A stretch of DNA of 64,000 nt from an uncultured Actinomycetes bacterium (GTDB lineage Bacteria > Actinomycetota > Thermoleophilia > UBA2241). Below the pieces are notes generated by a model, which had not been told where the DNA came from, did no database searches, and was given only the letters and a program-made list of their open reading frames with translations. The translations under genes were made by a program, and so were the position numbers. The stretch is taken from NCBI GenBank assembly GCA_963725665.1, contig CAVRZA010000006.1:288001-352000 (forward strand), read 5' to 3'. Shown here piece after piece: positions 19,931 to 45,750 of this stretch; the stretch's first letter is position 1; every line of letters begins with the position of its first letter.

Positions 19931-20092
19931 GGTGCCCCTTTCTCGCGGGATGCATGACGGATGAGAAGCCCCTCATTGGGGATGTGCAGTCCCCGAGCTT
20001 CACCGATCGGTAGCGCGGAACCCCTCACCTCCTCCCCCACGAGACGACGCGCGTACCCCGCTCAGGCTTCGCTGCCATCTCGAGTGCCGATT

Positions 20093-20192
20093 GTAGACTG
20101 TCAACTGGGTGTCTGTCGAGGGTCCGACCGAGGACTCGGGCACGGAGACGTTGCCCACTCGCAGCGCTCCTGATAGATTGTCGACTGTCGAC
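20093..20192. promoter_or_regulatory. Two copies of the putative GntR operator
   Basis: GTAGACTGTCAAC 20093-20105; GTCGACTGTCGAC 20180-20192. Confidence 0.65.
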
Positions 20193-20262
20193 TTAGCGAG
20201 GCCCAGGCGGCGCACGATCGGCGGCGCCGCGGCCGGACCAACGGCTACGAGGAGTCCTCCCC

Positions 20263-21699
20263 ATGACGACTGATGCTGCTCCCCAACCCCGCACTCTCAC
20301 CCCGCGTGTCCGGACCAAGCTGCCCGGTCCCAGGAGCCGAGAGCTGCTGGCCGTGAAGGACAGGGTCTTCTGCGGCCCCTTGCGCGAGGGCGTCGACGTC
20401 CCTTTCGTCATGGCGCGCAAGTCTGACTGGATCATCGAGGACGTCGACGGCAACACGTACGCGGACCACGTCTCGGCTTGGGGCTCCACTCCGCTTGGGG
20501 CCAAGCCTGAGGTCGTCCTCACTGCCACGGCAGAAGCCATGCAGCGCTACGGTATGGAGATCACCGACTACGTGATGAGCGAGCCGCCGCTGGCGCTCGC
20601 CGAACGCCTGCTCGACATCGCGCCGCCCGGGATCGCGCGCGTCGGGCCGAGCATCAGCGGTACGGAGGCCGTCGAGGCCGGCGTGAAGCTCGCCCGCGAA
20701 GCGACAGGCCGCCCCATGATTCTCGGCTTCCACGGTCAGTATCACGGAGAGTCGACCTATCTGACGGCGGCCGCCAGCACCGACCTCTCCGAGGTGAGCA
20801 GCAACAACGCGCAATACGTATCGGGCTTCGTGTTCACTCCGTACCCCAACCGGTTCCGCGCTCCCTTCCATCGTGGGCCCGGACCCTATGACGACACGAT
20901 GTACGTGGATTTCATCGAGGAATGGCTCCTCGTCCACCAGGTTGACCCTGAGCAGATCGCCGGCGTCCTCATCGAGCCAGTGCTCGGCGAGGGAGGCATC
21001 CTCATCCCCTCTCAGGCATTCTGGGACCGGCTGACGGGCCTCTGTCGACGCTTCGGATGGAAGCTGGTCCTCGACGAGGTGCAGACCTGTCTGGGGCGCT
21101 GTGGGACCATGTTCGCCGCCGAGATCTGGGGCCTCGAGCCTGACGTCGTCCTCATGGGCAAGGCCATCGCCGGCGGAGGTCAGCCGATCGCCGCCGTGCT
21201 GGGCACCGAAGAGGTCATGAGCGAGACCGACGTGCAGCCGGGTGGCACCTTCGCGTGGACGCCGGCAGCCTGCGCCGGGGCCTTGGCGAGCATCGACGCG
21301 ATCGTTCGCGATCAGGCCTTGGAGAACGCCCAACGGCTCGAGCAGATCGCTCGCGAGACGCTCGAGCCGCTCGTCGAGCGGTTCGAGCAGGTGGGCGACG
21401 TGCGCGCCATCGGCGCGTGGGTCGGCGTGGAGTTCGTGACAGACAAGGAGAGCATCAGGCCCGCGCCGGCCTTCCACAGCGCCGTGCACCAGGCCCTGGT
21501 GCGACGCGGCGTCCTCGGCATCACCCAGTGGGGCAAATGGGTCTACCGGATGCAGCCGGCGATCAACATGCCGGCGGAGCTCTTCCGCTGGTCGTGTCTG
21601 CAGGTGGCCGATGCCGTCGACGAAGTGTCGAAGGCCCCCCCGCGGGAACCGGGACTGCTCGACCGCTACGTCGGCGGCGAGCGGCGGCGCACCGGCTAG
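20263..21699 (+). CDS. Class III PLP aminotransferase (GabT/PatA-like)
   Basis: LPGPRS, SGTEAVE, YHG, EPVLGEGG, DEVQT.LGR.G, MGKAIAGG, GGTF. Confidence 0.92.
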   Translation: MTTDAAPQPRTLTPRVRTKLPGPRSRELLAVKDRVFCGPLREGVDVPFVMARKSDWIIEDVDGNTYADHVSAWGSTPLGAKPEVVLTATAEAMQRYGMEITDYVMSEPPLALAERLLDIAPPGIARVGPSISGTEAVEAGVKLAREATGRPMILGFHGQYHGESTYLTAAASTDLSEVSSNNAQYVSGFVFTPYPNRFRAPFHRGPGPYDDTMYVDFIEEWLLVHQVDPEQIAGVLIEPVLGEGGILIPSQAFWDRLTGLCRRFGWKLVLDEVQTCLGRCGTMFAAEIWGLEPDVVLMGKAIAGGGQPIAAVLGTEEVMSETDVQPGGTFAWTPAACAGALASIDAIVRDQALENAQRLEQIARETLEPLVERFEQVGDVRAIGAWVGVEFVTDKESIRPAPAFHSAVHQALVRRGVLGITQWGKWVYRMQPAINMPAELFRWSCLQVADAVDEVSKAPPREPGLLDRYVGGERRRTG

Positions 21700-24131: not shown

Positions 24132-25175
24132 CTAGGCCATAGGCCGCGTCATGACGGCGGCGAGCGCGGCAGCCGCTTCCTCGACGGCGTCATCATCGAT
24201 GTGCAGATGGGTGACGAACCTAATGCCGTACGGGTTCGGGTCGCCGAGCACGCCGCGTTCGGCAAGTCGCTCGGTGATCTCTTCGGCGGAACGGCCAGAC
24301 GGTGTGGTGTCGGCCAACACCATGTTCGTCTGCACCCGCTCCGGCTCCACCGCCAGGCCATCGATGCGAGCCAGCAGCGTAGCGAGACGGCGCGCGCGCC
24401 GGTGGTCGTCGGCAAGCCGGTCGATGTTGTGTTCGAGAGCGAAAAGCCCGGCTGCGGCAACGATGCCCGCCTGGCGCATCGCCCCGCCGAACTGCGCTCG
24501 ATACCGCAGCGCGCGCCGCAGGACTGTCGAGTCGCCGACGAGTAGCGAACCGACCGGCGCCCCCAGCCCTTTCGAGAGGCAGAAGCTCACCGTGTCGCAG
24601 AGAGCGGCGATCTCCGCTACCGGCGTCCCGGTGGCGACCGACGCGTTGAAGATGCGCGCGCCGTCGAGGTGGAGCCTCATCCCGTGACTGTCGCAGAAGG
24701 CGCGCACTTGGCGCATCCTTTCCAGCGGGTAGACCAACCCCCCGCACGCGTTGTGGGTGTTCTCCAGCACCACGGCGCGCGTAACGGCGTCGGTCTCGTC
24801 CTCGTCGGTCTGCACCCAGGGCTCCATCTCCACCGGATCGAGCGTGCCGTCAGGCGAGTCGAAGCAGTGAGCCTGGAGGCCGCAGAGGGCGGCCGAGGCT
24901 CCCATGGAGTACAGCTCTATGTACGAGCGGGCGTGCAGGAAGATGACCTCGCTGGGGTTCGTCAGAGCGCGAAGGCCCACGTGGTTTGCCATCGTGCCGG
25001 TAGGAAAGAAGACGGCGGCCTCCTTGCCGAACAGGTCCGCGGAGTACTCCTGCAGCCGGTTGACGGTCGGGTCCTCACCCGACTCGTCGTCGCCGACCTC
25101 AGCTTCGAACATGGCCCTCCGCATCTCTTGGCTGGGCAGGGTCTTGGTGTCGCTTCGCAGATCGATGGGGCGCAT
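24132..25175 (-). CDS. ltaE: Low-specificity L-threonine aldolase
   Basis: DLRSDT, GTMAN, ENTHN, HLDGARIFNA, CLSKGLGAPVG, GGAMRQAG. Confidence 0.93.
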   Translation of the reverse strand: MRPIDLRSDTKTLPSQEMRRAMFEAEVGDDESGEDPTVNRLQEYSADLFGKEAAVFFPTGTMANHVGLRALTNPSEVIFLHARSYIELYSMGASAALCGLQAHCFDSPDGTLDPVEMEPWVQTDEDETDAVTRAVVLENTHNACGGLVYPLERMRQVRAFCDSHGMRLHLDGARIFNASVATGTPVAEIAALCDTVSFCLSKGLGAPVGSLLVGDSTVLRRALRYRAQFGGAMRQAGIVAAAGLFALEHNIDRLADDHRRARRLATLLARIDGLAVEPERVQTNMVLADTTPSGRSAEEITERLAERGVLGDPNPYGIRFVTHLHIDDDAVEEAAAALAAVMTRPMA

Positions 25176-25261
25176 CCTTCGCTCCTCGGTCGAGACCGGC
25201 TCGGGGGCCGAATCACCTCACATCCGGCGCCTCCTGAATGCTCTCGGGTATGATGTCGTCA

Positions 25262-25274
25262 GTCAACAGTCAAC
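25262..25274. promoter_or_regulatory. Putative GntR operator between divergent ltaE and SDR
   Basis: GTCAACAGTCAAC. Confidence 0.5.
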
Positions 25275-25293
25275 TGGCATGAGGAGTCGGTCG

Positions 25294-26055
25294 ATGGCAA
25301 GGTTCACGGACAAGGTGGCGCTGATCACGGGCGGCACGCGGGGCATTGGGTATGCGACCGCCGCACTCTTCGCCCGAGAGGGCGCGGGAGTAGTCATCTG
25401 CGGCCGTGATGAAAGGCGCCTGACAACGGCCACGGCGGAGCTCGAGACACAGGGCGGGCCTGTAGCCGGCGTCCGTTGCGACGTCGGTTCCGAGCAGGAC
25501 GTCGAGCGACTCTTCTCGGAAGTCCTGGACCTCTTTGGAGGCCTCGACGTTTGCGTCTGCAACGCCGGAATCGAGACGGACGAAGAGTTCACGATCTTCG
25601 ACCTGCCGCCGGCGGTCTTCGACGAGAACATGCGGACCAACGTGCGCGGCGTCTACCTGACATCCCAGGGCGCGGCGAGGACGATGAAGGGCACCGGAGG
25701 CGCCATCGTCATCGTCGGTTCGTCGAGCGGCATCATCGCCGATGTCACCGCCCCCTCTCCCACGTACGATGCGACCAAGGCCGCCGTGCACATGTTCGCG
25801 AAGGCCCTCGCCCTCGAGCTGGCGCCGTACGGCATCAGGGTGAACGCGGTCGCCCCAGGCTGGATCGAGACCGACATGACGGCCGTCGAGGCGGACGACC
25901 CCGAAGTGGTCGCAAGCTGGCTCGAGCGCATCCCGCTCCGCCGTCTAGGGCAGCCCGATGAGGTCGCCGAGGTCATCGCCTTCCTGGCGAGCGAGCGGGC
26001 TTCGTACATGACGGGCTCGGTTGTCACCGTCGACGGCGGCGAGACCGTCATCTGA
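25294..26055 (+). CDS. Short-chain dehydrogenase/reductase
   Basis: TGGTRGIG, CNAG, YDATK, NAVAPG, VDGG. Confidence 0.92.
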   Translation: MARFTDKVALITGGTRGIGYATAALFAREGAGVVICGRDERRLTTATAELETQGGPVAGVRCDVGSEQDVERLFSEVLDLFGGLDVCVCNAGIETDEEFTIFDLPPAVFDENMRTNVRGVYLTSQGAARTMKGTGGAIVIVGSSSGIIADVTAPSPTYDATKAAVHMFAKALALELAPYGIRVNAVAPGWIETDMTAVEADDPEVVASWLERIPLRRLGQPDEVAEVIAFLASERASYMTGSVVTVDGGETVI

Positions 26056-26145: not shown

Positions 26146-27279
26146 CTAGCCCTTCTTGAACGCCTGCCAGACACGCAGCCACTCGTCGTAGTTGTCGGGG
26201 ATCACGAGCGGGATCGCCTGCTGCAACTGCTCGGGCTTGTCGAGGCCGATGCTCTTGACGAGCTTCGGCGAGAGCAAGGCGGGTGCGTCGGTGTTGAACA
26301 CCCAGTACGTGTAGTTCTTCGCGTACCAAGCTTCCGGCGGCGCCGAGTTGTAGTAGTTGATCAGACCGTACGCGTTGTCGAGGTTGGCGCTCTCGGAGCT
26401 GACACCGAAACCGCAGATCCAGGCGAGGGCTCCCTCCTCCGGAATGACGTACTTGGCCGGCAGACCCTCGCGGGCGAGGGTGACACCGTAGTCGTGCCAG
26501 GCGAACCCCGCCACGATCTCGCCCGTCTTGTAAAGGTTGACGAAGTTGGCGTCGCCGCTGAAGAAGGTGCGGAGCTGGCTCTTGTGGGCGATGAGGTAGT
26601 CCTGCACCTTCTGCAGGTCGGCGTCGGTCAGGTGGAACGGGTCCTTGTATCCGAGGGCGAGAGCGGCGATGGGGATGCCCGTCGCCGGCGTGTCCTCGAT
26701 CGTTATCTTGCCTTTGAGCGCGGGGTCCTCGAACAGAGCCTTCCACGAGGTCACGCCGCCCGGGATCACCTCAGGGTTGTAGAGCACACCCCCCGTCCCG
26801 CCCGTCGTCGGCACCATGTAGACCTTGCCGTCGATGACCACCCCGCCGAGCTCGCGAACACTCGGTATCACCTTGCCCCATTCGGCGATGCGGCTCGTGT
26901 CGATGGGTTGCAGCAGGCCAAGCCTCACCATGCGCGGCGTCTCCTCGACGCAGACGTGCAGCACGTCGGCCTTGAAGCCGGCGCGCAGCTTGGCAACAGC
27001 CTCGTCGTTGGTGCTGAAGGCGGCCTTGCGCACCGTCAGGTCGGGGTTGGCCTTCTGGAAGGGCCCGAGGATCTGGGGGATGAGCGCGTCTTCGTAGGCG
27101 AACACACCGACGGTACCTCCGAGGGGACCCGTCGGAGCGGCAGAGGGTGAGGTCGATGGCGAAGGCGTCGAGGTCGTGCCGCCGCAGCTCGTCAGAGCGA
27201 GGGCGGCGAGGAGACCCACACAGAAGGCAAGAGGAAGTGGCAACACACGCGCTGGCGTGACTCGCTTCGAGACGTCCAT
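26146..27279 (-). CDS. PotD-like ABC substrate-binding lipoprotein
   Basis: Lipobox LTSC, SWKALF.DP..KG, PEEG..AW, AY..INY. Confidence 0.87.
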   Translation of the reverse strand: MDVSKRVTPARVLPLPLAFCVGLLAALALTSCGGTTSTPSPSTSPSAAPTGPLGGTVGVFAYEDALIPQILGPFQKANPDLTVRKAAFSTNDEAVAKLRAGFKADVLHVCVEETPRMVRLGLLQPIDTSRIAEWGKVIPSVRELGGVVIDGKVYMVPTTGGTGGVLYNPEVIPGGVTSWKALFEDPALKGKITIEDTPATGIPIAALALGYKDPFHLTDADLQKVQDYLIAHKSQLRTFFSGDANFVNLYKTGEIVAGFAWHDYGVTLAREGLPAKYVIPEEGALAWICGFGVSSESANLDNAYGLINYYNSAPPEAWYAKNYTYWVFNTDAPALLSPKLVKSIGLDKPEQLQQAIPLVIPDNYDEWLRVWQAFKKG

Positions 27280-27327
27280 GGGCTGGCCTCCTCGTAGGGC
27301 TGCGTTTGCTGGGTACTCAGGGACCGG

Positions 27328-28134
27328 TCAACCGCCTCCTCCCCGTCGCCGTGACAGGTAATCGTCGACCATGCGCACGAGCCGGGCGCGGCCGAAGCTC
27401 GCGTAGTGCCCCGGGTGCACCGCCCGCACTGGCAGGTCGCGAAGGCGCTCCATGGTCGTCACGTAGGCCTCCGCGTCCGACCCGGGGAGATCGTCGAGGA
27501 GCGGACCCTGGTAGACGGCATCCCCCGAGAACAGTCTGCCCGTCTGCTCCTCCCAGAGGCCGATGCTCCCCGGCGAGTGACCGGGGAAGTGAAGGACGAC
27601 GAACCAGCGGTCACCGAGGTCGATCGCGTCTCCTTCGTCCAGGAGTCGCGTCGGCGGAGCCGGCGTGATCTTGTACGACGCCGGCTCGAACGACACCGTG
27701 GGGAGAGCGCTCAAGAGTACCTCCGGAAGCCTGTAGCCGGCCTCCTCCATGCCGCGCAGGAACTCCTCGCCGAAGGCCGACCTGACCAGCGCAGCGTCGT
27801 CACTCGCCAGCGCGAGCTCGGATGCTTCCGCCCGGTGGACCAGCCGGTCCTCGAACTCGTGCGCGCCGCCCATGTGGTCGGAGTGGGTGTGGGTGGCGAC
27901 AGCGATCACCGGTCTGCCGCGCCCGCCGGCGAGGTCTTCGATCGTGGGCCGCAGCGGCGCGATGCCGTTGCCGGTATCGACCAGGAGATCGGCGTCACGC
28001 CCGCGCACGTGCCAGATGTTGGCGCGCAGGAACTCGTCGACGTGCGGTTCGGTGATGAGCGTGACGCCGTCGCCGACCGCTACCGCGGAGAACCAGGTGC
28101 CGGCGACAGGAAGCCGATGCGGCGGCCGGCTCAC
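27328..28134 (-). CDS. Metallo-beta-lactamase-fold hydrolase
   Basis: VDTG, THTHSDHMG, PGHSPG, SGD, PGH. Confidence 0.9.
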   Translation of the reverse strand: MSRPPHRLPVAGTWFSAVAVGDGVTLITEPHVDEFLRANIWHVRGRDADLLVDTGNGIAPLRPTIEDLAGGRGRPVIAVATHTHSDHMGGAHEFEDRLVHRAEASELALASDDAALVRSAFGEEFLRGMEEAGYRLPEVLLSALPTVSFEPASYKITPAPPTRLLDEGDAIDLGDRWFVVLHFPGHSPGSIGLWEEQTGRLFSGDAVYQGPLLDDLPGSDAEAYVTTMERLRDLPVRAVHPGHYASFGRARLVRMVDDYLSRRRGGGG

Positions 28135-28176
28135 GAGCGCTGCGACCCATCGGCGCGGACGGAGCCCATCAACGTA

Positions 28177-28977
28177 CTACGGCTCCGGAACCGGCGGGTT
28201 GTCGGCCGGGTCGAACCACTCGCCGGTGAGCTCGCCGCCGTCGACAAGGATCGTCTCGCCGTTGATGTAGGACGCCTCATCCGAGGCCAGGAAGAGCACC
28301 ACGCTCGCCTGTTCCTCGGGGCGGGCGGGCCGACGAAGGGGCACCCGGCTGCAGTACTCGACGAATTCGCGGTGGTACTCCTCGCTCGTGAGCTCCTCCT
28401 CCGCCTCGGGCGTCCAGGTCTGTCCCGGCGCGACGCAGTTCGCGCGCACGCCTAGATGGCCTAGCTCGTGGGCGAAGCAGCGAGTCATCATCACGAGGGC
28501 CGCCTTGGACGAGTTGTAGTTGGCGGCCGGAGACTCGACGCGGAACGCGTTGGCGGAGGCGATGTTGATGATGATGCCGCCGCCGCTCTCGGCCATGTGA
28601 CGCGCCGCTACCTGGCTCGCGTAGAAGGGCCCGTCGAGGTTCACCGCGTAGGTGTCGCGCCAAGTCTGCTCGGTGATCTCCAACACCGGCCCGTAGGGCA
28701 TGATGGCGGCGTTGTTGACGAGAGCGTGCACGCGGCCCATGGCGGCGACCGCGTCGCGGACCATCTGCCGGGCCTGCTCGGGGACGCCGACATCGACGAC
28801 CGCCACCCGGACTCTCTCCGGGGCGGAGGACGAGGTGCGCATACGGTCTAGTCGCTCGCCCCGGCGAGCGACTGCATACACCTGCGCGCCCTCGTCGACG
28901 AAGGCGTGAGCGATGGCCCAGCCGATGCCGCTCGAAGCCCCGGTAACGATGACGTTCTTGTCTTCGAATCGCCGCAT
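28177..28977 (-). CDS. Short-chain dehydrogenase/reductase
   Basis: TGASSGIG, NNA, YNSSK, VAPG, VDGG. Confidence 0.92.
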   Translation of the reverse strand: MRRFEDKNVIVTGASSGIGWAIAHAFVDEGAQVYAVARRGERLDRMRTSSSAPERVRVAVVDVGVPEQARQMVRDAVAAMGRVHALVNNAAIMPYGPVLEITEQTWRDTYAVNLDGPFYASQVAARHMAESGGGIIINIASANAFRVESPAANYNSSKAALVMMTRCFAHELGHLGVRANCVAPGQTWTPEAEEELTSEEYHREFVEYCSRVPLRRPARPEEQASVVLFLASDEASYINGETILVDGGELTGEWFDPADNPPVPEP

Positions 28978-29053
28978 GCTCAGCCTCCTTACCGTCGCCA
29001 GCGACCAGTCTCGTCGCGCTACGTCGTCCGACTCGTGCGTCGCCGCCGCGTTC

Positions 29054-29897
29054 TCAGCCCACCTCAGGATAGTGAAGCGGCAGACCTGCGACGCCGACGT
29101 CGCCGACGAGCAGGTGCACTTCGCCGACGTTGGCAACCACCATGCAGCCGCAGGTCGGGCCCGGCGAACGCCATATTCGTGGGGGCGTTCAGAGCGATGC
29201 CCTGGGGATCGTCGGCGAGGATCTCAGCCCGTCCGTCCGGCGACACGCGATAGATGCGGTCGGGTCGGTAGCAGGCGACGTAGAGGTTGCCCTCGTCGTC
29301 GAGCGCAAGACCGTCGGGGACGGTGCCCGGCAGCTCCACGACGAGCTCTGGCCGGCCGGCCGAGCCGTCCGGAAGGATAGGGATGCGCGACACGCCCGGC
29401 AGGTACGACTCAGCCACGAGGAGCGCCCGGCCATCGGCGCTCAGGCAGCAGCCGTTGGGGTAGCGCGGCAGGTCGCGCGACCACACCACCGTCTCGCCGC
29501 CGGGAGCGACGCGCAGAATGCAGCCGTTGTCTTCCTGCGTCTCGCCGGAATCGGTCACGTACAGGTTGCCGCCGGCATCGAAGGCCGCGTAGTTGGGCTC
29601 GATCATCGCCTGTCCCGGCGCGCCCGCGGAGTACGCCTCCACCGTTCCCGTCCGAGGGTCGACGCGCACGACCTCGCAACGCCCGCAGTCGCAGGCGTAC
29701 ACGCGCCCCAAGCCGTCGAGCGTCACACCCAGGAGCTCGCCGCCGGTGTCGCCCACCTGCTCGACCTCTCCATCGAGTGCGACAGCGTAGATCTGGCCCG
29801 CCTCACCGCCCGCGTAGAGGCACCCGGCGACCGGGCTCCAGGCAACACCCTCGGGGTGGTCGAGGTCCTCGGCGAGGAGGGTGAACGGCTGCGGCAT
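29054..29897 (-). CDS. SMP-30/gluconolactonase family protein (frameshift near 29145)
   Basis: PEG, PN..F, PNG, PDGL.LD..GNLY, PTN.AFAG; C-terminus VVANVG...LHYPEVG continues in another frame. Confidence 0.83.
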
Positions 29898-29938
29898 AGC
29901 GCTCGCCTGCCTTTCTCGGTCGGGTTTGCGCGAGGCCG

Positions 29939-30395
29939 TCAGGCCTCGCCGCGCAGCCGCTTCATGGCCTTCTTGACCGCGTCGCTGTCGACCGCCATCT
30001 CGACGAGGCCGACCTGCTCCTCGTAGACGGCCGGGTCGACCTGTGCGCGAACGTCGTTCTCGAAGATGTGCACGACTGGGAGTCCCAACTGGACTCCTGC
30101 CAATGGACCCACGTAGGCGGGATCGCCCTCGGTCACTGTCTCGGTCACCATCTCGATCCCGTCGAGTCGGCCGCTCCGAGCACGACGACGAGATCGTCGC
30201 CGCCGTGCCGCTCGACCGTGCTCTTGATGCGGCCCTGGTTCTCGGGGTCCATCGCGCCGGCCGCCGTTCAGACGAAGCACTCCGTCTCGATCATCACGAC
30301 GTCGGCACCGGCCGTGCGCAAGCAGTCGGCGATCGCCTCGCCCGAGACGCTGTCCCGTTCGCCCAGGGCGATCACCTTCTTGCCTTGAGTTCCAT
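29939..30395 (-). CDS. grdA: Glycine/sarcosine/betaine reductase selenoprotein A; Sec at TGA 30268-30270; two 1-nt deletions
   Basis: Reconstructed KKVIALGERD..SG.AI..C...ETECFV-U-TAAGAMD.ENQ..IK...GDPAYVGPLAGVQLGL; CxxU motif; deletions near 30383 and 30165. Confidence 0.9.
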
Positions 30396-30720
30396 CTAGT
30401 CACCTCCCTCCACGAGCTCGGTGACGGCTGCGCTCGATCTCGACGGCAGTCGGACTGCCGGTCAGGCGCTTCACTTCCTCACCGTCACGATAGAGCACAA
30501 AAGTCGGCAGGCCGAAGACCTTCAGGTCGCGGCAGATCTGCCGGTTCTCGTTCGCGTTGACCTTGACGAGCCTGATACGGCCCGCGAGCCGTTCCTCGAG
30601 CTGCTCGACGGCCGGCATGAGCGCCAGACACGGCGCACAGCGCGGGCCCCAGAAGTCCACCAGCACGACGCCGTCGGCGACGAGCCCCCGGTAGGTGTCG
30701 ACGGTTGCCTCGGTTGCCAT
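30396..30720 (-). CDS. trxA: Thioredoxin (probable frameshift near 30433)
   Basis: VDFWGPRCAPC, GLPTF; corrected C-terminus EIEAAVTELVEGD-like ending at TAG 30396-30398. Confidence 0.88.
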
Positions 30721-32035
30721 TCACACCTCCACGATCACGGATACAGCGTCCCACATCTGCGTCATGCGGCCCAGGAACAGGCTCCCCTTAGCCATCAGCA
30801 TCGTCGAGCGGAGCTCCCCGTTCTCAAATCGCACCAAGGCGTGCGGAAGCCACGGCACGGCCGAGGCGATGTGTCCCTGCGTGGGTGAAAACCCGGGAAG
30901 GCCACGACGTCGGCAGAACTCGTCGATCTCGACTCCGCTCAAGCTGCCCGTCCATCACCGCAAGCGCGCCGAGCAGGCGGTAGTTGCGCAGGGGCACGTC
31001 GTACCCTCCGGCCGGCTCGGTGATCTCGGGATTGTGCAGCTCGGTCGAGTAGACGTCGATCGCGTCGACACGCTTGCCCAGCCGTTCTAGCGGCCGCAGC
31101 ACGACCTCGCGCAGGAGCGACTGCTGGGAGGAGTCGCACCCCGTGCGATGCTGACCCACGGAGTCGAGCCGGACGACGGGGGCACCCGCTTCGGCGGCGC
31201 CGACGAGGACGGCCATCCCCGCCAGCTCGTCTTCGAGCACGGGGACACCGTGGTCTTCGCTGCCCTTGAACTTCATGCCGAGCTTGGCCAGCGACCCACC
31301 GGCCACGACCACGACACGATCGTAGACGCCCGATTCCACGAGTGCCCCGGCCATGACGATGGCGTGCACGGGACTCGTGCAAAAGGCCTTCACATCGCTG
31401 CCGTTGGCGTTCACGAGACCGCACGTCTCGGCGATGGCCTTGGCCATCGCACCCCCGCCCCGGTTGTAGCGATCGCCCACGGCTTCCTCTCCAGCCCCGA
31501 TGGCGTACTGGATCGAAGCGGGATCGATATCGTTGGCGGAGAGGAGGAAGCGCAGGGCGTGCACACCGCCGGCTTTGCAGGCGAGGTTCTCCAACAGCAC
31601 ATGGGCGCTCAGCGCCTGGTCCTCCTCGTGGCCTCGTGCGAAGGCGCCCACGACACGCCCGTCGGCGTACAGGGGCAGATCGCCATTGGCCTCGTCCGGC
31701 TCCTCGCCCAGGCGAACGAGCTCGAAGAGATCGACCGCCGCCATGAGCTCGTAGAATCGCCGCTCGTCCATGATCTCGCCGAACGGTCCCCCCGCGCTGC
31801 TCCCGTCGTCGTGCCGCCACCAGGGGCGCGCCGTGTCCCAGAGCGCCTCGGGGCGACAATTGCCGATGAAGACTTGATTCGGGGGGTAGGCGACCGCCTC
31901 GGGGAAGCTGCGCAAAAGGCTGCTTACCTTCGCAAAGCGCTCCGCTTCGCGGGCCGGCTTCGACCCGTAACGCACCAAATCGGGGACGTGCTGAAGCACG
32001 AACGTCGCCGCCTGGATGCCCGCCCGCCGTTTCAC
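30721..32035 (-). CDS. grdC: Glycine reductase component C beta subunit (FabH-like); frameshift near 30931
   Basis: HVPDLVRYGS, YPPNQVFIGN, ENLACKA, EEAVGD.Y.RGGG, TELHNPEITEPAG, PGFSPTQGHIAS, KGSLFLGRMT. Confidence 0.88.
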
Positions 32036-32072
32036 GTCGGCCCTTCCACCATTCCGAGGACGTGCGCACGCA

Positions 32073-33350
32073 TCATGACTCCCCCCACACAGTTCGCGGG
32101 TCCACCGCCGTCTCGAGCATCGTAAGGGCGCGCTCGACCAGGCGGCGGCGCAGCGCCACCTCGTCGGCCCGGTTCTGCTCCGGATCACCCACGGGATTGG
32201 TGATGGCCACGCCGCGCACGATGCGGTTGGCGCCGACCATGACGGCTATCGTCGGCAGGGCCGTGATGATCACTGTCGGTATCCCGGCTCGTTCCAGCTC
32301 TTTGGCCAGCGTTGCCCCGCAACGCGTCCCCGTTCCTCAGGTTCCTGTGAGCAGCACAGCGTTGATGTGCGCCTCGTGCAGCTCCTGGGCGATCTCCTGC
32401 CCGAACTTGGCCGCCGTGGCCACCGGCGTCGAGTTGCCGGTCGTCGTGTAGAAGACGTCGTGCAGCCGTCCGATGCGACCCTCGCGCTCCAGCACCCGCA
32501 CAACATCAAGCGGCACGAGCCGGTTGGGATCGGCGTTCGCGACGCCGACATCGTAACCGCCGTGCACCGACTCGAACTCGCCCGCGCGCAGAGAGTCGAC
32601 GTCCCTCAGCGAGTAGCGCAGCCACTTGTGCGCGCGGTTCGACTCGAGATGGTCCGGATTGCCCTGCGGGACGCACCCGGCCTCGCTCACCAGCGCCAGC
32701 ATAGCAGTGCTCAGATCGGCCACAGGGGCCGGCGGCGGCACGAGGTCTCGCGGTGCTTCGACCTCCGTGTATGTCTTCCCCTCGAGCTTCGCCAGGAGCA
32801 TCTCGACGGCGCGGGCTGCGCCGGGCAGCTCGCAGAGCTCGTTGCGGCGCAGCCCGCGCGGCAGGTAGCCCTCCTCGGCCGGTCCGCCGACCGGTTCGCG
32901 GGTTCCGAGGCGGCGAGCCAGTGACGCCATCTTGGGCAGTGTGTCGCGCATGGCTGCCACGCGCGACCCGGTCGGCACGACGTACGCGGCGCCCTCGGCG
33001 GCGAGTACTCCCGGGCTCTCCGGCTCCATGCCGCAGACCGCAGGGATGCCGCGACGCGCCGCCTCACGGGCCAAGACGCCGCAGGCGTAGCCGTAGCGCC
33101 CGGAGCCGAACGAGGGTCCGCAGACGAGCACGTCGGGGCGCTCGGCCTCGAGGTGGCGCAGCAGCGTCGCCAGGGCCGTCTCTTCGTGCTCGCCGAAGTA
33201 ATCGTCGCCGCAGGCAAGCGTGGCCGCCACCTCAAGGCCGAGCGCCCGGCCTGGCCCAACGGCACCCTCGAGTCGCAACGGCGCCATACCGGCAGAGTCC
33301 TCACCGCCGAAGCCGGCGAAGAACTGGTTGAGGTAGTGAACGACTCTCAC
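32073..33350 (-). CDS. grdB: Glycine/betaine reductase selenoprotein B; Sec at TGA 32337-32339
   Basis: VHYLNQFFAG, CGD.YF, GRYG, HGGYD, GN.T; frame continues through TGA as LTGT-U-GTGTRCGATLAKELERAGIP...GANRIV. Confidence 0.94.
32309..32325 (-). promoter_or_regulatory. SECIS-like hairpin 11 nt downstream of the grdB UGA
   Basis: mRNA GCGUUGC-GGG-GCAACGC. Confidence 0.65.
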
Positions 33351-33359
33351 GATGCGACC

Positions 33360-34655
33360 TTACGCCGGAGCCGCGCGCACGCGCATGTCGCCCGTCTGAG
33401 ACAGTGAGCCCAGATAGCTCACCAGTGGCAGCGGCCGGGGTTCGCGTGCCGGCTGCGCGTCGAGCATGACATCTCCCCCGATGACCTCGACGGGCTCCCA
33501 TTCGGCTACCAGTTCCTCCTCGTTGCCCACGCTCACGATGGCGTCGGCCTCAGGTACGTGGTCGGTGAGACCGGCGTTGGTCTCGGCTACCAGCATGACC
33601 GTGCGGATTCCGAGACGCTCACAGGCGCGGCAGGTCAGCATCGTATCGGTGTGCGAATTGCCCGACGAGAACGTCGTGAGGATCGCCCCTTCGGCGCCCA
33701 GCTGCTGGCCCAGCTTGGCCGCCATCATGGCCATACGTTCCTTCTCGAAGGCCGAGGGCAGGTAGGCCAGCGTGAGCACCACTCCGCGAAGATCGACATA
33801 GGATCCGTGCGCCCGCAGAAGCCTCAGAAGGAGATCGCTGCGCTGGTAGAAGTGCGTTGGGTTGCGTACGCCTGCCCAATCGTACTGGCCGGCCGTCAGC
33901 GCCCCATCGAGGACCTCCCGGGGATCTAGCACAGTCGCGACAGCGCCCTTGAGCGAAGCTCCATAGAAGTAGGTGTCCACCAGGGGGCCCTCGGCCGCGA
34001 CCTGAAGGATCACGCACACCCGGGGCATCTCGCCCGACACGTCACCCCAGTGCAGCACCTCGACATCGCCGGGAACCACCTCCGCCGGCACCTCCGCCGC
34101 CAGGGCTCGCGCGAACGCAAGCGTCACCCGTCGCAAGGAGCGGTCGACGTCTGCTAGCTGCACTGTCGGATCACAGCGGAACGAGAGGACGACGTTCTGC
34201 GTCGCCGACCAGTGCGAGAAGGCCGCCCCCGGGCCGCCCATGTCGACGATAGAGTCTCCGTCGGGAACGACGTCGAGGGCTGTGACATCGTGACTTGCCC
34301 GCAAATCGGCCGTTGCGAGCACCGCCACCCCCGAGAGACGCCGAGTCGGTCCGATGCCGACGGGCTTCAACGTTCCCAGAGCGCCGGGAAACGTGGCCTC
34401 TGGCTCCGCGGTCTTGAGCGCAGGCTCCACTGCATCGAGCACGTTGAGCAGACGGACTGGGTCTCCTGGTCGAACGACGCTCAGACGCACCTCGAGGATC
34501 CCGGGCAGGCCCAACCAGAGCGGCTCGAGCGAGGCTTCGCTCACCGTCAGACGGCCGTCTTCCCAGGCCGTGCTTGACCCCTGGACGAGCCCTCCCACGG
34601 CGTGCGAGCTTATCTCGAGAACGGAAAGTCGGTCTTGAGTCACGGTCTGTCGCAT
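33360..34655 (-). CDS. Glycine/sarcosine/betaine reductase component B proprotein (GrdE/GrdI-like)
   Basis: RPG..VR..NV.D.VEP..K, DMGGPGA, P.EVLDGA, K.R.A, GN...D, ADAIVSVGN; directly upstream of grdB. Confidence 0.82.
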   Translation of the reverse strand: MRQTVTQDRLSVLEISSHAVGGLVQGSSTAWEDGRLTVSEASLEPLWLGLPGILEVRLSVVRPGDPVRLLNVLDAVEPALKTAEPEATFPGALGTLKPVGIGPTRRLSGVAVLATADLRASHDVTALDVVPDGDSIVDMGGPGAAFSHWSATQNVVLSFRCDPTVQLADVDRSLRRVTLAFARALAAEVPAEVVPGDVEVLHWGDVSGEMPRVCVILQVAAEGPLVDTYFYGASLKGAVATVLDPREVLDGALTAGQYDWAGVRNPTHFYQRSDLLLRLLRAHGSYVDLRGVVLTLAYLPSAFEKERMAMMAAKLGQQLGAEGAILTTFSSGNSHTDTMLTCRACERLGIRTVMLVAETNAGLTDHVPEADAIVSVGNEEELVAEWEPVEVIGGDVMLDAQPAREPRPLPLVSYLGSLSQTGDMRVRAAPA

Positions 34656-34660: not shown

Positions 34661-34761
34661 GTCGATAGTCGACAGTTTACAGACTATGGCCTTTGGCGAG
34701 CAGGGTCAACGGACTTCTTGCAGACCGAGGATAGAGTCGCTGCCGACGGTTGACTGTCGAC
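34661..34761. promoter_or_regulatory. Putative GntR operators upstream of the grd operon and the truncated potD
   Basis: GTCGATAGTCGACAGTTTAC 34661-34680; GTTGACTGTCGAC 34749-34761. Confidence 0.65.
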
Positions 34762-34816: not shown

Positions 34817-35245
34817 ATGGACAAGTGCCGGAGTCTGTACGCCGCGATGGCAAAGCTGCGCGCCGGCTTCAAGGCCGACGTGGTGAACATGTGCGTCGAG
34901 GAGAACGCTCAACAGCGCGACGGGTATCCCGTCGAGTACACGCTGGCCGGGGAGGGGCAGCTCTTGTGGACGTGCGGCTACGGGATCACGTCGACCTGTC
35001 GGAATCTCGACGCCGCCCACGCGCTGCTGAACTACTACCTAAGCCCCCAAGCGGAAGCCTTCGAGGCCAAGCAGTGGAACTACATGGTGACCAACGAGGA
35101 GACCCTCAAGGTAGTGAGCGACGAGGTGCGCAAGAAGGCGCGCCTGGATCAGGCATACGACCTGGGGAACGCCCTGCCCGCCGCGCCGCCGGCGCAGGGG
35201 TACCCCAACTGGGTCCGCGCCTGGGAGGACTTCAAGCGCTACTAG
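34817..35245 (+). pseudogene. Internally deleted PotD-like gene
   Basis: AKLRAGFKADVVNMCVEE joined in frame to EGQLLWTCGYGIT...NALPAAPP, both matching 41561-42691; signal peptide and middle region missing. Confidence 0.82.
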
Positions 35246-36245: not shown

Positions 36246-37394
36246 TCAACCGGGCGCCGCGATCCTCGTCCGCGAGACCTGCTGCTCGGCGACGGCGTCC
36301 TCGTCGAGCTCCACCCCCAACCCCGGCTTCTCGGGGATGCGCAGTAGCGACACGCCGTCGATCGTCTCTGTCTCGAGGCCCGTGGCAAGATCGCGCGCGA
36401 AGTCCCCTCCCCTCCACGGCGGGTCTGTGTCGCTCGATATCGCGTTGGCCAGGGCGGCGTGCAGGTGGACGACAGGCGCTGTGCCGACGGTGGCGTGACC
36501 CATGTTGCCGACGTGGACTCCCACTCCGGCCGCCTCGGCGATCGCGTTCACCTTGAGAGCGCCGAGGATGCCGCCAGTCTTCATCAGCTTCACGCTGATC
36601 AGGTCGCAGGCTTCGGCACGCACTGCGGCGAGCGCCTCACGTGGACCGCGCACGCTCTCGTCGAGGCACAGAGGGACTTCCACACGCGTCCGTACTCTCC
36701 GGGCGCCCTCCAGGTCCCCGGCGCGCAGCGGTTCCTCTACGAACGCCACCCCATGACGCTCCAGTCTCTTGATGCCCGCCACGGCGCGATGGACGGTTCT
36801 CCATCCCTGATTGGCATCGACGCGTATCTCGGCGCCGGCGCCGACAGCGTCGCGCAGCACGGCCACGAGCTCCAGCCGCTCGTCGCGGAGCTCGCGCTCA
36901 TCGCCTGGGCACAGGTAGAGCTTGAAGACCCGAATCCCAGCGCGCCGAAGCGCGGCGGCTCGGGAGGCAAGAGCCTCCGCCGGCTCGTCGCGGTCGAGTG
37001 GGCAGGCTTCGTGGATCACCCTCCCGTAGAGACCGCCCAGGAGCTCGTACAAGGGCCGCCCGAGAGCCTTTCCCTTGACGTCCCACAGGGCCATCTCGAG
37101 AGCACCGCGCGCGGCCTCGTTCCCGACTCCGGTCTCCTCCCATCGACGGGCGACGGCCTCGATGGCTAAGGGATCTCGCCCGATCAGAGCGGGAGCGAGG
37201 TGGGAGGCGATGACGGCCGTGACGGTCGCCGCCGTTTCGCCGGTGTAGGCGTAACCCGGACACGCCTCCCCGAGGCCTACGACGCCCTCATCGGTCTCCA
37301 CGCGAACCAGGACGAGCTGGCTCCAGCGCCACGCCGAGGTCTCCCGCCGCATCCTCATGCGTAGCGTGTCTGTCTCGACGCAAGTGATCTTCAT
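36246..37394 (-). CDS. Mandelate racemase/muconate cycloisomerase (enolase superfamily) enzyme
   Basis: TDEG..G.GE, ALWD..GK, DANQGW, EEP, DES, KLMKTGG. Confidence 0.88.
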   Translation of the reverse strand: MKITCVETDTLRMRMRRETSAWRWSQLVLVRVETDEGVVGLGEACPGYAYTGETAATVTAVIASHLAPALIGRDPLAIEAVARRWEETGVGNEAARGALEMALWDVKGKALGRPLYELLGGLYGRVIHEACPLDRDEPAEALASRAAALRRAGIRVFKLYLCPGDERELRDERLELVAVLRDAVGAGAEIRVDANQGWRTVHRAVAGIKRLERHGVAFVEEPLRAGDLEGARRVRTRVEVPLCLDESVRGPREALAAVRAEACDLISVKLMKTGGILGALKVNAIAEAAGVGVHVGNMGHATVGTAPVVHLHAALANAISSDTDPPWRGGDFARDLATGLETETIDGVSLLRIPEKPGLGVELDEDAVAEQQVSRTRIAAPG

Positions 37395-37506
37395 CGCACA
37401 CGACGCATCGATCAGCATCCCTCAAGCGTGCGCCTGCGGGGCGTTATGTCACGCACGCGCCGGAGCGACCGTCCGAGCCCAGGCCGGCCGGCCCCGACCC
37501 CACCCG

Positions 37507-39153
37507 TCAGAGCGAGGTCCTGCGCCGGCGCCTGTCACGCAGGACCTCACGCACGCAGTTCGTGCCGTTGGCGCCGCTGATGCCGCCTCCGGGGTGCGTG
37601 CCGGCTCCGCAAAGGTACAGTCCGGAGATCGGCGTGCGGTAGTCGGCGTAGCCGCGTACGGGACGCAGGAAGAAGAGCTGATGGTCGCCCATGTCGCCGT
37701 GCAGCGCGTGCCCGCCGGTCACGTTCCACAGCCTTTCCATGTCGAGCGGCGAGAGTACCTGTCGGTGCTCGATGGCGCCGGGAAGGTTGGGGAAGTAGCG
37801 GGCGATCTGGGCGATGGCGCGGTCGGCGACCTCGTCCTTGATGTCGTCCCAGCTCGAGCCGTCGCGCAGCGTGTAGGGCTGCGAATTCATGTCGATCGTG
37901 ACGATGTGCTTGCCCGGCGGCGCCAGTGAGGGATCGAACACGGTCGGGCAGCACAACTCCACGTGCGGGTTCTCGATGGCGGGGATGCCGGCACGCGCCT
38001 GGGCCTGGTTCAGGTCCATCTCGGTCACGGTCGAGTTGCACTCGACGATGCAGCGGTGGTACGGCTGCACGTCGCCCGGGACCTCGTTGAGCTCGTCCCA
38101 GGCCGCACGCGGCAGCTCACCGACGGCCAGGTTCACCTTAATGCTCGTGCCCTCACAGATGAAGGCGCGCAGGGCGTTGACGTAGTCCTCCGGGAGCTCC
38201 CGCTCGTCGACCATGGCGAGCATCGTGCGCTTGGGGTCGGCGTTCGACACCACGACGGGCGCCCGCACCTCATCACCGCCCTCGAGCACGACACCGACGA
38301 CGCGTCCGCACTCAACGAGAATGCGCTCGACCGTCGCCCCCGTGCGGATCTCGGCGCCGGCCTCGCAAACCGCATCGGCCATCAGGGCAGTGAGCGTCCC
38401 GATCCCGCCGCGCACGAACCCCCACTTGCGCACGCCTCCTCCGGCCTCGGAGGAGGCGAACTCGTGCAGCAGCACGTATGCGGTGCCAGGCGTCGAGGGC
38501 CCGGAGACGCTGTCGTTGATGGCGAACCACGACAGCGCGCCCTTGATGACGTCGCTCTCGAAACGCTCGTCGAGGTACTGGGCACAAGAGGCGGCGAAGA
38601 GGTGAGCGGCGCCGAGGAGCTGCTTGCGGTGACGGATGGCCGGCAGCCCGACGCGTGCGAGCCGCTCGAGGTCGGCCCAGCCGCGAATGCGAGGGTCGAA
38701 GGGCGTCACACTGAACAACGGACCGAACCAGCCGGCAAGTTCCTCCAGCTCGTCAGAGAAGCGCTGGTAGGCGCGTGCGTCTTTGCAAGACAGGGGCGCG
38801 ATCTCGCGCCGCATGTCGGCCGGGTCCTCGTGCAGGTAGAGGTGCTCGCCGCCGGCGAACAGATTGAGGCTCGGGCCGGTGGGATCCACCCGAAGCCCGC
38901 GCTCGGCCAAGCGCATGTCGCGCCAGATCGCCTCGCGTAGCATGGCGAGCACATAGGCCCCCGTCGACGCCCGGTAGCCGGGCGCGAACTCCTCGGTGAC
39001 GGCCATGCCACCGACGAACGGACGGCGCTCGAGGATCAGCACCCGCAGACCCGAACGGGCGAGGTAGAACGCCGACACCATACCGTTATGGCCCCCGCCC
39101 ACGACTATCGCGTCGTAGCCCGCTGGTGGCTGTACGCTCAGAGTCGGCTCCAT
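37507..39153 (-). CDS. Phytoene desaturase-like FAD oxidoreductase (PYROXD2-like)
   Basis: GGGHNG, GGMAVTEE..PG, GGIG, DPSLAPPGKH, SPLD.E, LCGAGTHPGGG. Confidence 0.88.
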   Translation of the reverse strand: MEPTLSVQPPAGYDAIVVGGGHNGMVSAFYLARSGLRVLILERRPFVGGMAVTEEFAPGYRASTGAYVLAMLREAIWRDMRLAERGLRVDPTGPSLNLFAGGEHLYLHEDPADMRREIAPLSCKDARAYQRFSDELEELAGWFGPLFSVTPFDPRIRGWADLERLARVGLPAIRHRKQLLGAAHLFAASCAQYLDERFESDVIKGALSWFAINDSVSGPSTPGTAYVLLHEFASSEAGGGVRKWGFVRGGIGTLTALMADAVCEAGAEIRTGATVERILVECGRVVGVVLEGGDEVRAPVVVSNADPKRTMLAMVDERELPEDYVNALRAFICEGTSIKVNLAVGELPRAAWDELNEVPGDVQPYHRCIVECNSTVTEMDLNQAQARAGIPAIENPHVELCCPTVFDPSLAPPGKHIVTIDMNSQPYTLRDGSSWDDIKDEVADRAIAQIARYFPNLPGAIEHRQVLSPLDMERLWNVTGGHALHGDMGDHQLFFLRPVRGYADYRTPISGLYLCGAGTHPGGGISGANGTNCVREVLRDRRRRRTSL

Positions 39154-39501
39154 CTCCCCCCGCTGGCACGTCGCCTGAGTCCGGTGTGCCGCCGGCGCTC
39201 CGCGGAGCGGCGGCGGCACACCCTTCGCGCGGCCACGCTAGCCGAGGGCGACGGTCCTGTCAACGCGGTGATGCAACGATATTCGTGGCGGAACCCGCGG
39301 AGAAGGGAGGCATGACGCATAAAGATGGCAGCCGTGTGGACGATTACCGTATCCTCGTACTCCGAACCAGGGCGAGGCCGGCCTCCCATCAGAGCGACGG
39401 GCCTCCCTGCACCCAGAAGCGACGGCTCGGCCCCCCGCTACGCATCTCGCGTCTTCTCCCACCCCGCCCTCTGCATTGCGCAAACGGTGGCCCGGTCTGT
39501 G

Positions 39502-39514
39502 GTAGACTGTCAAC
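39502..39514. promoter_or_regulatory. Putative operator 3 nt upstream of the gntR start (autoregulation)
   Basis: GTAGACTGTCAAC, identical to 20093-20105. Confidence 0.7.
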
Positions 39515-39517: not shown

Positions 39518-40192
39518 ATGAAGCCCCTGCAGACAAGAAGATCGCTGGCCGAAGACGCAGCCGACCGCGTGCGTGAGGAGATCCTTACCGGGGGGTTCAA
39601 GCAGGGCGAGCGTCTGGTCGAGGCGCGCATCGCTCAGGAGCTCGGCATCAGTCGGGGGCCGTTGCGCGAGGCCTTCAAGCTCTTGCGCGCCGAGGGCCTG
39701 GTGAAAGAAGAACCCAATCGCGGGACCTTCGTCGTGCGGCTCTCGGGCACCGACGTGCGTGACATCTTCGAGCTCCGCGAGGCTTTGGAGACCATGGCCG
39801 TTCGCCTGCTCGTCGACCGCGGCCGGGAATCAGGGCTGCGCGAGCTGCGCAAGCTCCTCGATCAGCTGGAGAAGGCGGCGGGCAACGGGGACGTGCGAGC
39901 CGTCTCTCGGGCCGACCTCACTCTGCACGAGGCGATCTGCCGGCTCAGCAGCAATGCGCGCCTGCACGCGGCTTACACGCGCGACTTTCCGACCATGCTC
40001 GCGCTGATCCACATCGACGACCAGCTGTACCCTTCACTTGAGGCCATGGCGCGTGAACACAGGCCCATCCTGGATGCCATCGGCGAAGGCGATGCCGATC
40101 TGGCGGTCACGCACCTCCAGAAGCACATCCGCGAGGCATCAGACCTCGTGGCGGCCTACATCGAAGCTATGCCCGAGAACAGTCCCGCCTAA
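39518..40192 (+). CDS. GntR family (FadR/FCD) regulator
   Basis: GERL.E..IA.ELG.SR.P.REA, PNRG..V, FCD His motifs. Confidence 0.93.
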   Translation: MKPLQTRRSLAEDAADRVREEILTGGFKQGERLVEARIAQELGISRGPLREAFKLLRAEGLVKEEPNRGTFVVRLSGTDVRDIFELREALETMAVRLLVDRGRESGLRELRKLLDQLEKAAGNGDVRAVSRADLTLHEAICRLSSNARLHAAYTRDFPTMLALIHIDDQLYPSLEAMAREHRPILDAIGEGDADLAVTHLQKHIREASDLVAAYIEAMPENSPA

Positions 40193-41351: not shown

Positions 41352-41488
41352 TGCAACTGAGGGAGCCGCCGGGCGCGGCTCGAGCGCCGGGGACCGGCAA
41401 CCGGACAGCGTTACGAATGCTTCTCGATCGCCGTCTCAGGGCCGCTTCCGCGGGACCCGCTCCAGGCTTCTTGCAGGGTCGACTGACG

Positions 41489-44589: not shown

Positions 44590-45750
<1,161 letters not shown>

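Follow-up and report, generated by a model that had tools for sequence, protein, structure and literature searches.

Can a Grd-type selenoprotein reductase work without GrdD, its acetyl-phosphate-forming subunit? Grd-type selenoenzymes are energy-conserving reductases of strict anaerobes that provide ATP via acetyl phosphate, and a role was reportedly assigned to Cys359 of GrdD by Kohlstock et al. in 2001. The question is raised by a string of nine genes, all on the minus strand, in the 64-kb stretch of actinobacterial DNA analysed here (the window). We find that this operon, present once, encodes a distinct actinobacterial form of the Grd selenoprotein reductase that is shared across a whole clade. 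We further propose, with a probability of about 0.55, that it encodes a thioredoxin-driven selenoenzyme for an imported substrate other than glycine, sarcosine or betaine, whose acyl group leaves GrdC without passing through acetyl phosphate. A preliminary description had read the string as GrdE-like, GrdB with selenocysteine (Sec), GrdC, thioredoxin (Trx), GrdA with Sec, SMP-30, short-chain dehydrogenase/reductase (SDR), metallo-beta-lactamase (MBL) and PotD-like proteins, and both this order and its coordinates are borne out:

33360-34655, minus strand: GrdE-like protein B subunit, 431 residues (PF09338, 244 bits)
32073-33350, minus strand: GrdB-like selenoprotein B, 425 residues (PF07355, 393 bits; TIGR01918, 433 bits), in-frame TGA at 32337-32339
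30721-32035, minus strand: GrdC, the protein C beta subunit (NF040746, 414 + 89 bits in two frames)
30400-30720, minus strand: thioredoxin, 106 residues, with a CAPC motif in WGPRCAPC (PF00085, 72 bits; clostridial TrxA model, 89 bits)
29939-30403, minus strand: GrdA, selenoprotein A, with CFVUTAAG (NF040748, 108 + 88 bits in two pieces), in-frame TGA at 30268-30270
29054-29897, minus strand: SMP-30/gluconolactonase-like beta-propeller, SGL (PF08450, 94 bits)
28177-28977, minus strand: SDR of the glucose 1-dehydrogenase-like subfamily (PF13561, 201 bits; NF005559, 226 bits, cut-off 215)
27328-28134, minus strand: MBL-fold hydrolase of the glyoxalase II/thioesterase-like branch (PF00753, 76 bits)
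26146-27279, minus strand: PotD/PotF-like periplasmic binding protein at the end of the gene string (PF13416, 83 bits; matches to PotD, PotF and YdcS weak)

The trx start codon abuts the grdC stop codon, and the gaps among the last five genes measure 41-76 nt.

The lack of GrdD, which the preliminary description had noted for the window, extends well beyond it. A profile search with NF040747, on which a true GrdD scores 580 bits, found no GrdD in the window's own genome (3.73 Mb in 12 contigs, 97.5% complete), and none of the whole genomes examined behind 40 related loci exceeded the cut-off, the best score being 34 bits in plsX-sized frames. The GrdD proteins of Acetoanaerobium noterae and Enterococcus gilvus gave no tblastn high-scoring segment pair in the genome or in 80 related loci, in a search where GrdC of the same canonical operon matched strongly. 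The single PlsX-fold gene of the genome, on contig C3, is a true plsX (TIGR00182, 326 bits). Thioredoxin reductase is likewise missing from the window, as had been reported, and the genome-wide search places a genuine trxB on contig C1 (357 bits, over the cut-off). There is only one GrdB gene in the genome, and the selenocysteine machinery, which is complete with selD, selA, selB and tRNA-Sec, lies together on contig C11. There, selD (541083-541916) adjoins selA and selB about 4 kb from tRNA-Sec and has an in-frame TGA of its own, so that selenophosphate synthetase is itself a selenoprotein.

The same grdD-less operon, which it had been suggested might recur in other genomes, does so widely. 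The 80 related loci, gathered with a profile of the GrdE-like protein, all come from metagenome-assembled genomes (MAGs) of Actinomycetota, labelled Thermoleophilia, Gaiellales, Gaiellaceae, Actinomycetes or Streptosporangiaceae, and 54 of them have full 10-kb flanks. GrdE, GrdB, GrdC, Trx and GrdA are found in the same order in 66 of the 80. The largest gaps within this core are 199 nt between GrdB and GrdC and 108 nt between GrdC and Trx, so a GrdD of 385 residues cannot fit. The 14 loci without the full core comprise 11 that stop at a contig edge and three with full flanks that hold GrdE and GrdB only; among the full-flank loci the thioredoxin gene is present in 50 and GrdC in 51. Those three (L030, L043 and L051) have a GrdE-like protein and GrdB, and the surrounding 10 kb contain neither GrdC nor Trx nor GrdA; as L043 shares one MAG with the complete five-gene locus L075, additional protein B pairs may draw on a single set of GrdA, GrdC and Trx.

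Both subunits of protein B depart from their canonical counterparts. Alignment places Tyr258 and Gly262 of the GrdE-like protein opposite Cys242 and Cys246 of canonical GrdE and GrdG, which both carry SGN-C242-xxx-C246. The same Tyr/Gly replacement is seen in 10 of 10 related proteins aligned, and only four of the 122 nearest family representatives have a cysteine at the pyruvoyl column. In Clostridioides difficile GrdE, Cys242 is the pyruvoyl site and residues 242-266 form the pyruvoyl peptide, according to the accessible text of PMC9908766. On the GrdG model the GrdE-like protein scores 153 bits (cut-off 780), below canonical GrdE (668) and GrdI (345), and on the FarE model of fluoroacetate reductase it reaches 104 bits against a cut-off of 675. 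NCBIfam models gave just three matches among 57 GrdE-family representatives (E <= 1e-90), all of them weak GrdG matches. A sequence search of the PDB with the GrdE-like protein and with GrdB returned no relative of either.

GrdB belongs clearly to its subfamily (TIGR01918, 433 bits against a cut-off of 65) and to none of the functionally defined members within it: it scores 412 bits on TIGR01917 (cut-off 602), 447 on GrdF (800) and 388 on GrdH (775), and its identity to the sarcosine and glycine types is 45%. The D-proline reductase models are further away (PrdA 23 bits, cut-off 700; PrdB 86 bits, cut-off 300). Its Sec motif is GTUGTGTRC, i.e. UxxGxxC, in place of the UxxCxxC motif (a name also used in the available part of PMC13188914) of the canonical GrdB type, TSTUGTCTRC, where three canonical sequences share UGTCTRC. 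All 66 actinobacterial GrdB proteins have glycine at U+3, with Sec at the active position in 65 and cysteine in one. This last protein (L018:11230-12504, TGTCGTGTRC) represents a naturally occurring Sec-to-Cys change, which could make heterologous expression easier. A hairpin begins 14 nt past the GrdB UGA, and the regions after both UGA codons of the operon fold, though no better than shuffled sequences (z = -0.7) in a test for selenocysteine insertion elements; retention of the in-frame stop across relatives is the stronger evidence for Sec.

Phylogeny gives the same picture. In a tree of 126 GrdE-family proteins the window's protein lies in a 13-member clade (SH-like support 99) remote from the eight-member clade (99) of GrdE, GrdG and GrdI, and the GrdB tree, built with PrdB as outgroup and with three GrdB-type sequences of characterised enzymes, separates the 66 actinobacterial proteins (94) from GrdB, GrdF and GrdH (84). 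The comparison with GrdB, GrdF, GrdH and PrdB proposed in the preliminary description thus puts the actinobacterial GrdB on a separate branch. Its claim of a different substrate gains indirect support from the lost pyruvoyl cysteine, the UxxGxxC motif, the separate clades and scores far under every equivalog cut-off.

GrdA is of the canonical type. It has the CxxU signature as CFVU, its in-frame stop is kept in 66 of 66 related genes, and in a relative with an intact frame the protein passes its model with 200 bits (cut-off 130). An unbroken GrdC from a relative reaches 520 bits on NF040746 (cut-off 450; canonical GrdC 817), and the thiolase-type cysteine is present in all 54 sequences compared, with the PTQGH motif retained. 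The canonical Cys173 and Cys228 are present in none of the 54, and the protein is about 80 residues shorter, lacking an internal insert and a C-terminal tail of some 35 residues each. Its N-terminal half aligns with the active-site region of ketoacyl-acyl carrier protein synthase III (KAS III) and its C-terminal half is the GrdC-specific DUF5940. Of the two parts of a protein C, therefore, GrdC is present and GrdD absent.

How the operon stands to characterised systems was judged against annotated records of canonical operons: grdX-grdG-grdF of P. acidaminophilum, the betaine reductase of E. gilvus (L101, trxB-trx-grdA-grdC-grdD-grdI-grdH) and the glycine reductase of A. noterae (L102, trxB-trxA-grdE-grdA-grdB-grdC-grdD). 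With glycine reductase it shares GrdA with CxxU, a selenoprotein B of the same fold, a GrdE-family partner, a dedicated thioredoxin and GrdC with the same thiolase-type cysteine and PTQGH. It differs in lacking GrdD and Cys242/Cys246, in its UxxGxxC motif, in the shorter GrdC without two canonical cysteines, in its gene order and unlinked trxB, and in hosts that mostly have cytochrome oxidase and lack ackA and pta. Its scores on GrdF (447 against 800) and GrdG (153 against 780) set it apart from sarcosine reductase. The betaine enzyme offers one parallel in its unprocessed GrdE-family subunit, position 242 being Phe in GrdI and Tyr in the window's protein, and this likeness would predict direct displacement of a good leaving group. 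However, GrdI groups with GrdE and GrdG and not with the window's clade, GrdH keeps UxxCxxC, the window's GrdB stays below the cut-off of the GrdH model (388 against 775), and the betaine operon includes GrdD together with a BCCT carrier where the window's operon has neither and is accompanied by a PotD-type ATP-binding cassette (ABC) importer.

FarACEB of Cloacibacillus porcorum sets an example of a Grd protein B pair redirected to a substrate that is not an amine; in the accessible part of PMC10838667, FarE lacks the two processing cysteines and FarB the CxxC residues. As described there, the far operon encodes an MFS antiporter along with an iron-sulphur oxidoreductase and relies on GrdA, GrdC and GrdD supplied by other loci, whereas the window's operon has its own GrdA, GrdC and Trx in a genome without GrdD. 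GrdC also resembles the KAS III (FabH)/thiolase superfamily, e.g. ZhuH (PDB 1mzj), with the acyl-accepting cysteine aligned in a weak match (22 bits); unlike KAS III its C-terminal half is DUF5940, and GrdC is not known to use coenzyme A (CoA) or acyl carrier protein. The literature searched, with subscription journals and supplements outside its scope, yielded no description of a GrdD-less actinobacterial Grd system, and none is mentioned in the available parts of PMC9751293, PMC1794560 and PMC13188914.

The reading frames of the operon are interrupted at three points that the preliminary description did not record: in grdC near 30931-30935, within a GACTC site, in grdA by a 1-nt deletion at 30165, within a GAGTC site, and in SGL by a 1-nt insertion at 29146. 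In addition, the sole grdA start codon, a GTG at 30401-30403 that overlaps the trx stop as GTGA, is out of frame with the GrdA N-terminus, which makes a fourth single-base error likely. Public short-read contigs were aligned to positions 29000-31100, any one run holding at most a 0.17 share of this stretch. Being mostly 90-97% identical to the window, these contigs belong to relatives, not to the organism itself. Contigs of three runs have one base fewer at 29146 and contigs of two runs one base more behind 30165; their remaining indels are 3-nt changes in intergenic DNA, and no contig spans the grdC break or the grdA start. Protein on either side of every break aligns with intact relatives, and there are no stop codons or other decay besides the single-base indels. 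Two of the three breaks fall within GAGTC/GACTC, a motif covering less than 1% of the window, and this suggests a systematic base-calling error. Judged from these alignments, the three or four breaks look like assembly errors and not decay. Other overlapping same-strand open reading frames of the window were suspected of being frameshifted and turned out to be separate genes. GAGTC/GACTC is itself depleted across the window (105 sites against 240 expected, with more in 100 of 100 shuffles), which suggests a GAGTC-methylating restriction-modification system that disturbs base calling.

What the enzyme acts on may be approached through its regulation. An operator-like palindrome, GTnGACnGTCnAC, occurs in three copies upstream of grdE (34661-34674, 34668-34681 and 34748-34761). 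An exact 17-mer with the palindrome stands 90 nt ahead of grdE (34745-34761) and recurs before the ABC importer (41485-41501). The window holds 24 matches against 7.5 expected, a number reached in none of 100 shuffles. Two copies lie between an aldolase gene and a second SDR gene (25255-25275), a cluster at 20092-20193 precedes a class-III aminotransferase gene, and the palindrome is also present upstream of an M28 peptidase gene. The genes around the operon to which these sites lead, or which lie beside them, are:

39518-40192, plus strand: GntR/FCD regulator (PF00392, PF07729), with a palindrome copy at 39501-39514
41485-45750, plus strand: ABC importer operon, with PotD-like binding protein (41549-42691), permease (42692-43627) and ATPase (44521-45750)
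37507-39219, minus strand: CrtI/amine-oxidase-family flavin adenine dinucleotide oxidoreductase, divergent from the GntR gene
36246-37418, minus strand: enolase-superfamily (MR_MLE) gene, divergent from the GntR gene
25300-26055, plus strand: second SDR
24132-25175, minus strand: GntG/threonine-aldolase-like, pyridoxal phosphate (PLP)-dependent aldolase (NF041359, 376 bits, cut-off 230)
20197-21699, plus strand: class-III aminotransferase

Sites in relatives were counted in the 80 loci, allowing at most one mismatch within 250 nt upstream of a gene, where 5.4% would have one by chance. The palindrome precedes GntR in 36 of 42 cases, grdE in 31 of 56, the binding protein in 31 of 52 and MR_MLE in nine of 11, and is virtually missing before the internal operon genes that served as controls (GrdB 1/81, GrdC 1/71, Trx 0/66, GrdA 1/66). 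A conserved palindrome at the promoters of both the regulator and its putative targets is what a GntR/FCD regulon should have, and we infer that the GntR protein binds it. The shared sites tie the reductase to a GntR-controlled regulon of import and catabolism.

The preliminary description had the operon continue into lactonase, SDR and MBL genes. Neighbours were counted by tblastn within 10 kb of the core in the 54 full-flank loci, clustering of open reading frames by single linkage having been dropped because it merged unrelated families. An SDR homologue is near the core in 36 loci, the SGL lactonase in 34, the GntR/FCD regulator in 33, the CrtI/amine-oxidase-family flavoprotein and the PotD-like binding protein in 32 each, the MBL hydrolase in 15, a PLP decarboxylase in 11 and the aldolase in nine. 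Lactonase and SDR are real partners of the core in about half of the loci, and the MBL hydrolase in 15 only. SGL forms an unbroken same-strand chain with the core in 27 loci, and nine loci repeat the window's own order of GrdA-SGL-SDR-MBL, the binding protein included or not. In 26 loci none of the window's accessory genes is chained to the core, and many of these have a nearby IclR gene instead. By sequence, beta-propeller lactonases are among the nearest solved relatives of SGL, and among solved structures the MBL protein comes closest to hydroxyacylglutathione hydrolase-like proteins and the PqsE thioesterase.

In the nine closest loci the gene immediately before grdE is the threonine-aldolase-like one. 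These closest relatives have a whole binding-protein gene together with the aldolase gene upstream of grdE, at the place where the window has, between grdE and a MauE/DoxX gene, an open reading frame of 142 residues (34817-35242, plus strand) that matches the C-terminal part of the binding-protein domain only and is probably a gene remnant. The ABC importer is followed at once by genes for a diaminopimelate-decarboxylase-like PLP enzyme and then a homologue of the LarA-family nickel-pincer racemase (45812-48563, plus strand).

Host metabolism bears on the fate of the acyl group. Acetate kinase (ackA) is absent from the window's own genome and from 35 of the 40 relatives' genomes (over the cut-off in five), and phosphotransacetylase (pta) is absent from the same genome and from 38 of the 40 (over the cut-off in two). 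Acetyl phosphate would thus be without its usual consumer in most hosts, in keeping with the loss of GrdD. Of 41 genomes, 35 encode cytochrome oxidase subunit I, the window's own among them. The earlier proposal that the acyl intermediate is released by another route is one that these absences and the invariant GrdC cysteine fit rather than demonstrate.

The window contains further genes of metabolic interest. Two encode aldehyde:ferredoxin oxidoreductases with AFOR_N and AFOR_C domains (14321-16432, plus strand, and 60618-62501, minus strand), and after the first come genes for a 4Fe-4S ferredoxin and a saccharopine-dehydrogenase-like protein. Such enzymes are of an anaerobe type, yet the genome also has cytochrome oxidase. 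A full pyrrolysine system is present as well (8200-9081, plus strand; 55702-55774 and 55832-59040, minus strand), with the PylS catalytic subunit (TIGR02367, 314 bits), PylB (448 bits), PylC (338 bits) and PylD (212 bits), and a tRNA-Pyl with a CUA anticodon directly after pylD. This Thermoleophilia-type lineage thus appears to decode UAG as pyrrolysine. PylD exceeds its cut-off in six of 41 genomes, namely the window's own and its five nearest relatives, and the idea that the reductase feeds methylamines to pyrrolysine-dependent methyltransferases was rejected as a property of the cluster on this count.

Our proposal for the working of the enzyme combines these elements. A compound taken up by the PotD-type system would induce the regulon, the GntR/FCD regulator switching on importer and operon together. 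Electrons would pass from NADPH via the housekeeping TrxB and the operon's thioredoxin to reduce GrdA. The unprocessed GrdE-like/GrdB pair would bind the imported molecule, an alpha-substituted carboxylate other than glycine, sarcosine or betaine, and the GrdB selenol would displace the alpha substituent directly, without a pyruvoyl Schiff base, as has been proposed for betaine and fluoroacetate reduction (PMC10838667, in the text available). The carboxyalkyl group would then move to the GrdA selenocysteine and on to a thioester on the invariant thiolase-type cysteine of GrdC. Given that GrdD is absent and acetate kinase and phosphotransacetylase mostly so, release as an acyl phosphate is not expected; transfer to CoA, by analogy a reversal of the KAS III priming step, would be the most likely exit, with hydrolysis and self-lactonisation as alternatives. 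The surrounding genes suggest more than one kind of substrate: an amine would suit the importer, flavoprotein, aminotransferase and decarboxylase, whereas SDR, lactonase and enolase-superfamily genes hint at a sugar-acid-like skeleton and the aldolase of the closest clade at glycine or a beta-hydroxy amino acid.

Several alternatives have to be set against this proposal. The enzyme could still reduce glycine, which the neighbouring threonine-aldolase-like enzyme would supply, or else a simple methylated glycine; protein C would then consist of GrdC only, and facultative aerobes would use the system to dispose of electrons or to obtain acetyl units. The aldolase before grdE in the nine closest loci, under the same operator in the window, the highly conserved GrdA with its canonical CFVU, and the debate over the role of the GrdE pyruvoyl group itself (available text of PMC9908766) all speak for this; we nonetheless consider it unlikely, given that the pyruvoyl precursor is missing, that the protein B subunits form a separate clade of low identity (45% between GrdB and the sarcosine and glycine types, with the GrdE-like protein scoring below even GrdI on the GrdG model, 153 against 345 bits), that the aldolase is found in nine of 54 loci only and that import is by a PotD-type system instead of a carrier for amino acids or betaine. 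Hydrolytic release, by the MBL-fold thioesterase-like protein or by water, would make the system a purely detoxifying or degradative reductase without an activated product. It has in its favour an MBL gene in the operon here and in the closest clade, the kinship of that protein to glyoxalase II-type hydrolases and a CoA thioesterase, and the end products of fluoroacetate reduction, fluoride and acetate (PMC10838667, in its accessible part). With an MBL gene in just 15 of the full-flank loci, however, this protein cannot be a general replacement for GrdD, and retention of GrdC in 51 of 54 with an invariant nucleophilic cysteine argues for a covalent acyl-enzyme step, so that we hold hydrolysis to be distinctly unlikely. 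More speculative, and in our estimate improbable, is a hydroxylated alpha-substituted acid, e.g. a 2-amino-2-deoxy-aldonate, whose own hydroxyl would attack the GrdC thioester to give a lactone, opened in turn by the SMP-30-type lactonase, with the SDR acting on substrate or product. Self-lactonisation would need neither GrdD nor phosphate and would explain why the lactonase is chained to the core in half of the loci; if true, it would represent a new Grd reaction class in oxygen-respiring soil Actinomycetota.

Two simpler explanations question whether there is anything new to explain. That the window's cluster is a real pseudogene, its grdC, grdA and lactonase breaks being true mutations, is prompted by three and perhaps four breaks inside 2 kb, judged by contigs of relatives and not by reads of the source organism itself. 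We give it little credence: the damage is confined to single-base indels with alignable protein on both sides, a difference of exactly one base separates the window from relatives' contigs at two of the three breaks, two of the three lie in GAGTC/GACTC in a pattern suggesting systematic base-calling error, and the core is kept in 66 of the 80 loci, so the possibility of a true pseudogene raised earlier finds no support. An ordinary glycine, sarcosine or betaine reductase with grdD, and trxB, elsewhere in the genome is largely refuted and has only the slightest chance of being right. The trxB gene is indeed elsewhere, a relative with intact frames has a GrdA and a GrdC that exceed their equivalog cut-offs, and public annotation pipelines name the relatives sarcosine or glycine reductase; yet neither the window's own genome nor those of 40 relatives has a GrdD, the sole PlsX-fold gene being a true plsX, GrdB (412, 447 and 388 bits against 602, 800 and 775) and the GrdE-like protein (153 against 780) fall far short of their cut-offs, the pyruvoyl and U+3 cysteines are gone, and both protein B subunits sit in separate clades.

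Some points weigh against our proposal of a reductase for a new imported substrate. Its relatives are MAGs of unestablished completeness, so that missing grdD, ackA and pta genes are not proof, and five of the 40 do have ackA. The trees were built with FastTree only, from three characterised GrdB-type sequences and a long-branched outgroup. The short-read contigs show intact frames in relatives, not in the source organism, and leave the grdC break uncovered. The 26 loci without chained accessory genes indicate that the clade may use several substrates. An aldolase of the type found upstream of grdE in the nine closest loci releases glycine, so glycine may be the substrate. Every step beyond the presence of the genes is inferred, and CoA transfer by GrdC would follow by analogy with KAS III.

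Grd machinery is thus conserved in dozens of uncultured soil and sediment Actinomycetota without the acetyl-phosphate-forming subunit or the pyruvoyl cofactor. The labels 'sarcosine reductase' and 'glycine reductase' given to these proteins by annotation pipelines should be treated with caution, as the proteins lack the defining features of both. The link between regulator, operator and importer provides a practical handle on the substrate. If functional, the system would point to a new substrate class, a second way of resolving the selenoether intermediate and a need for selenium in abundant soil bacteria.

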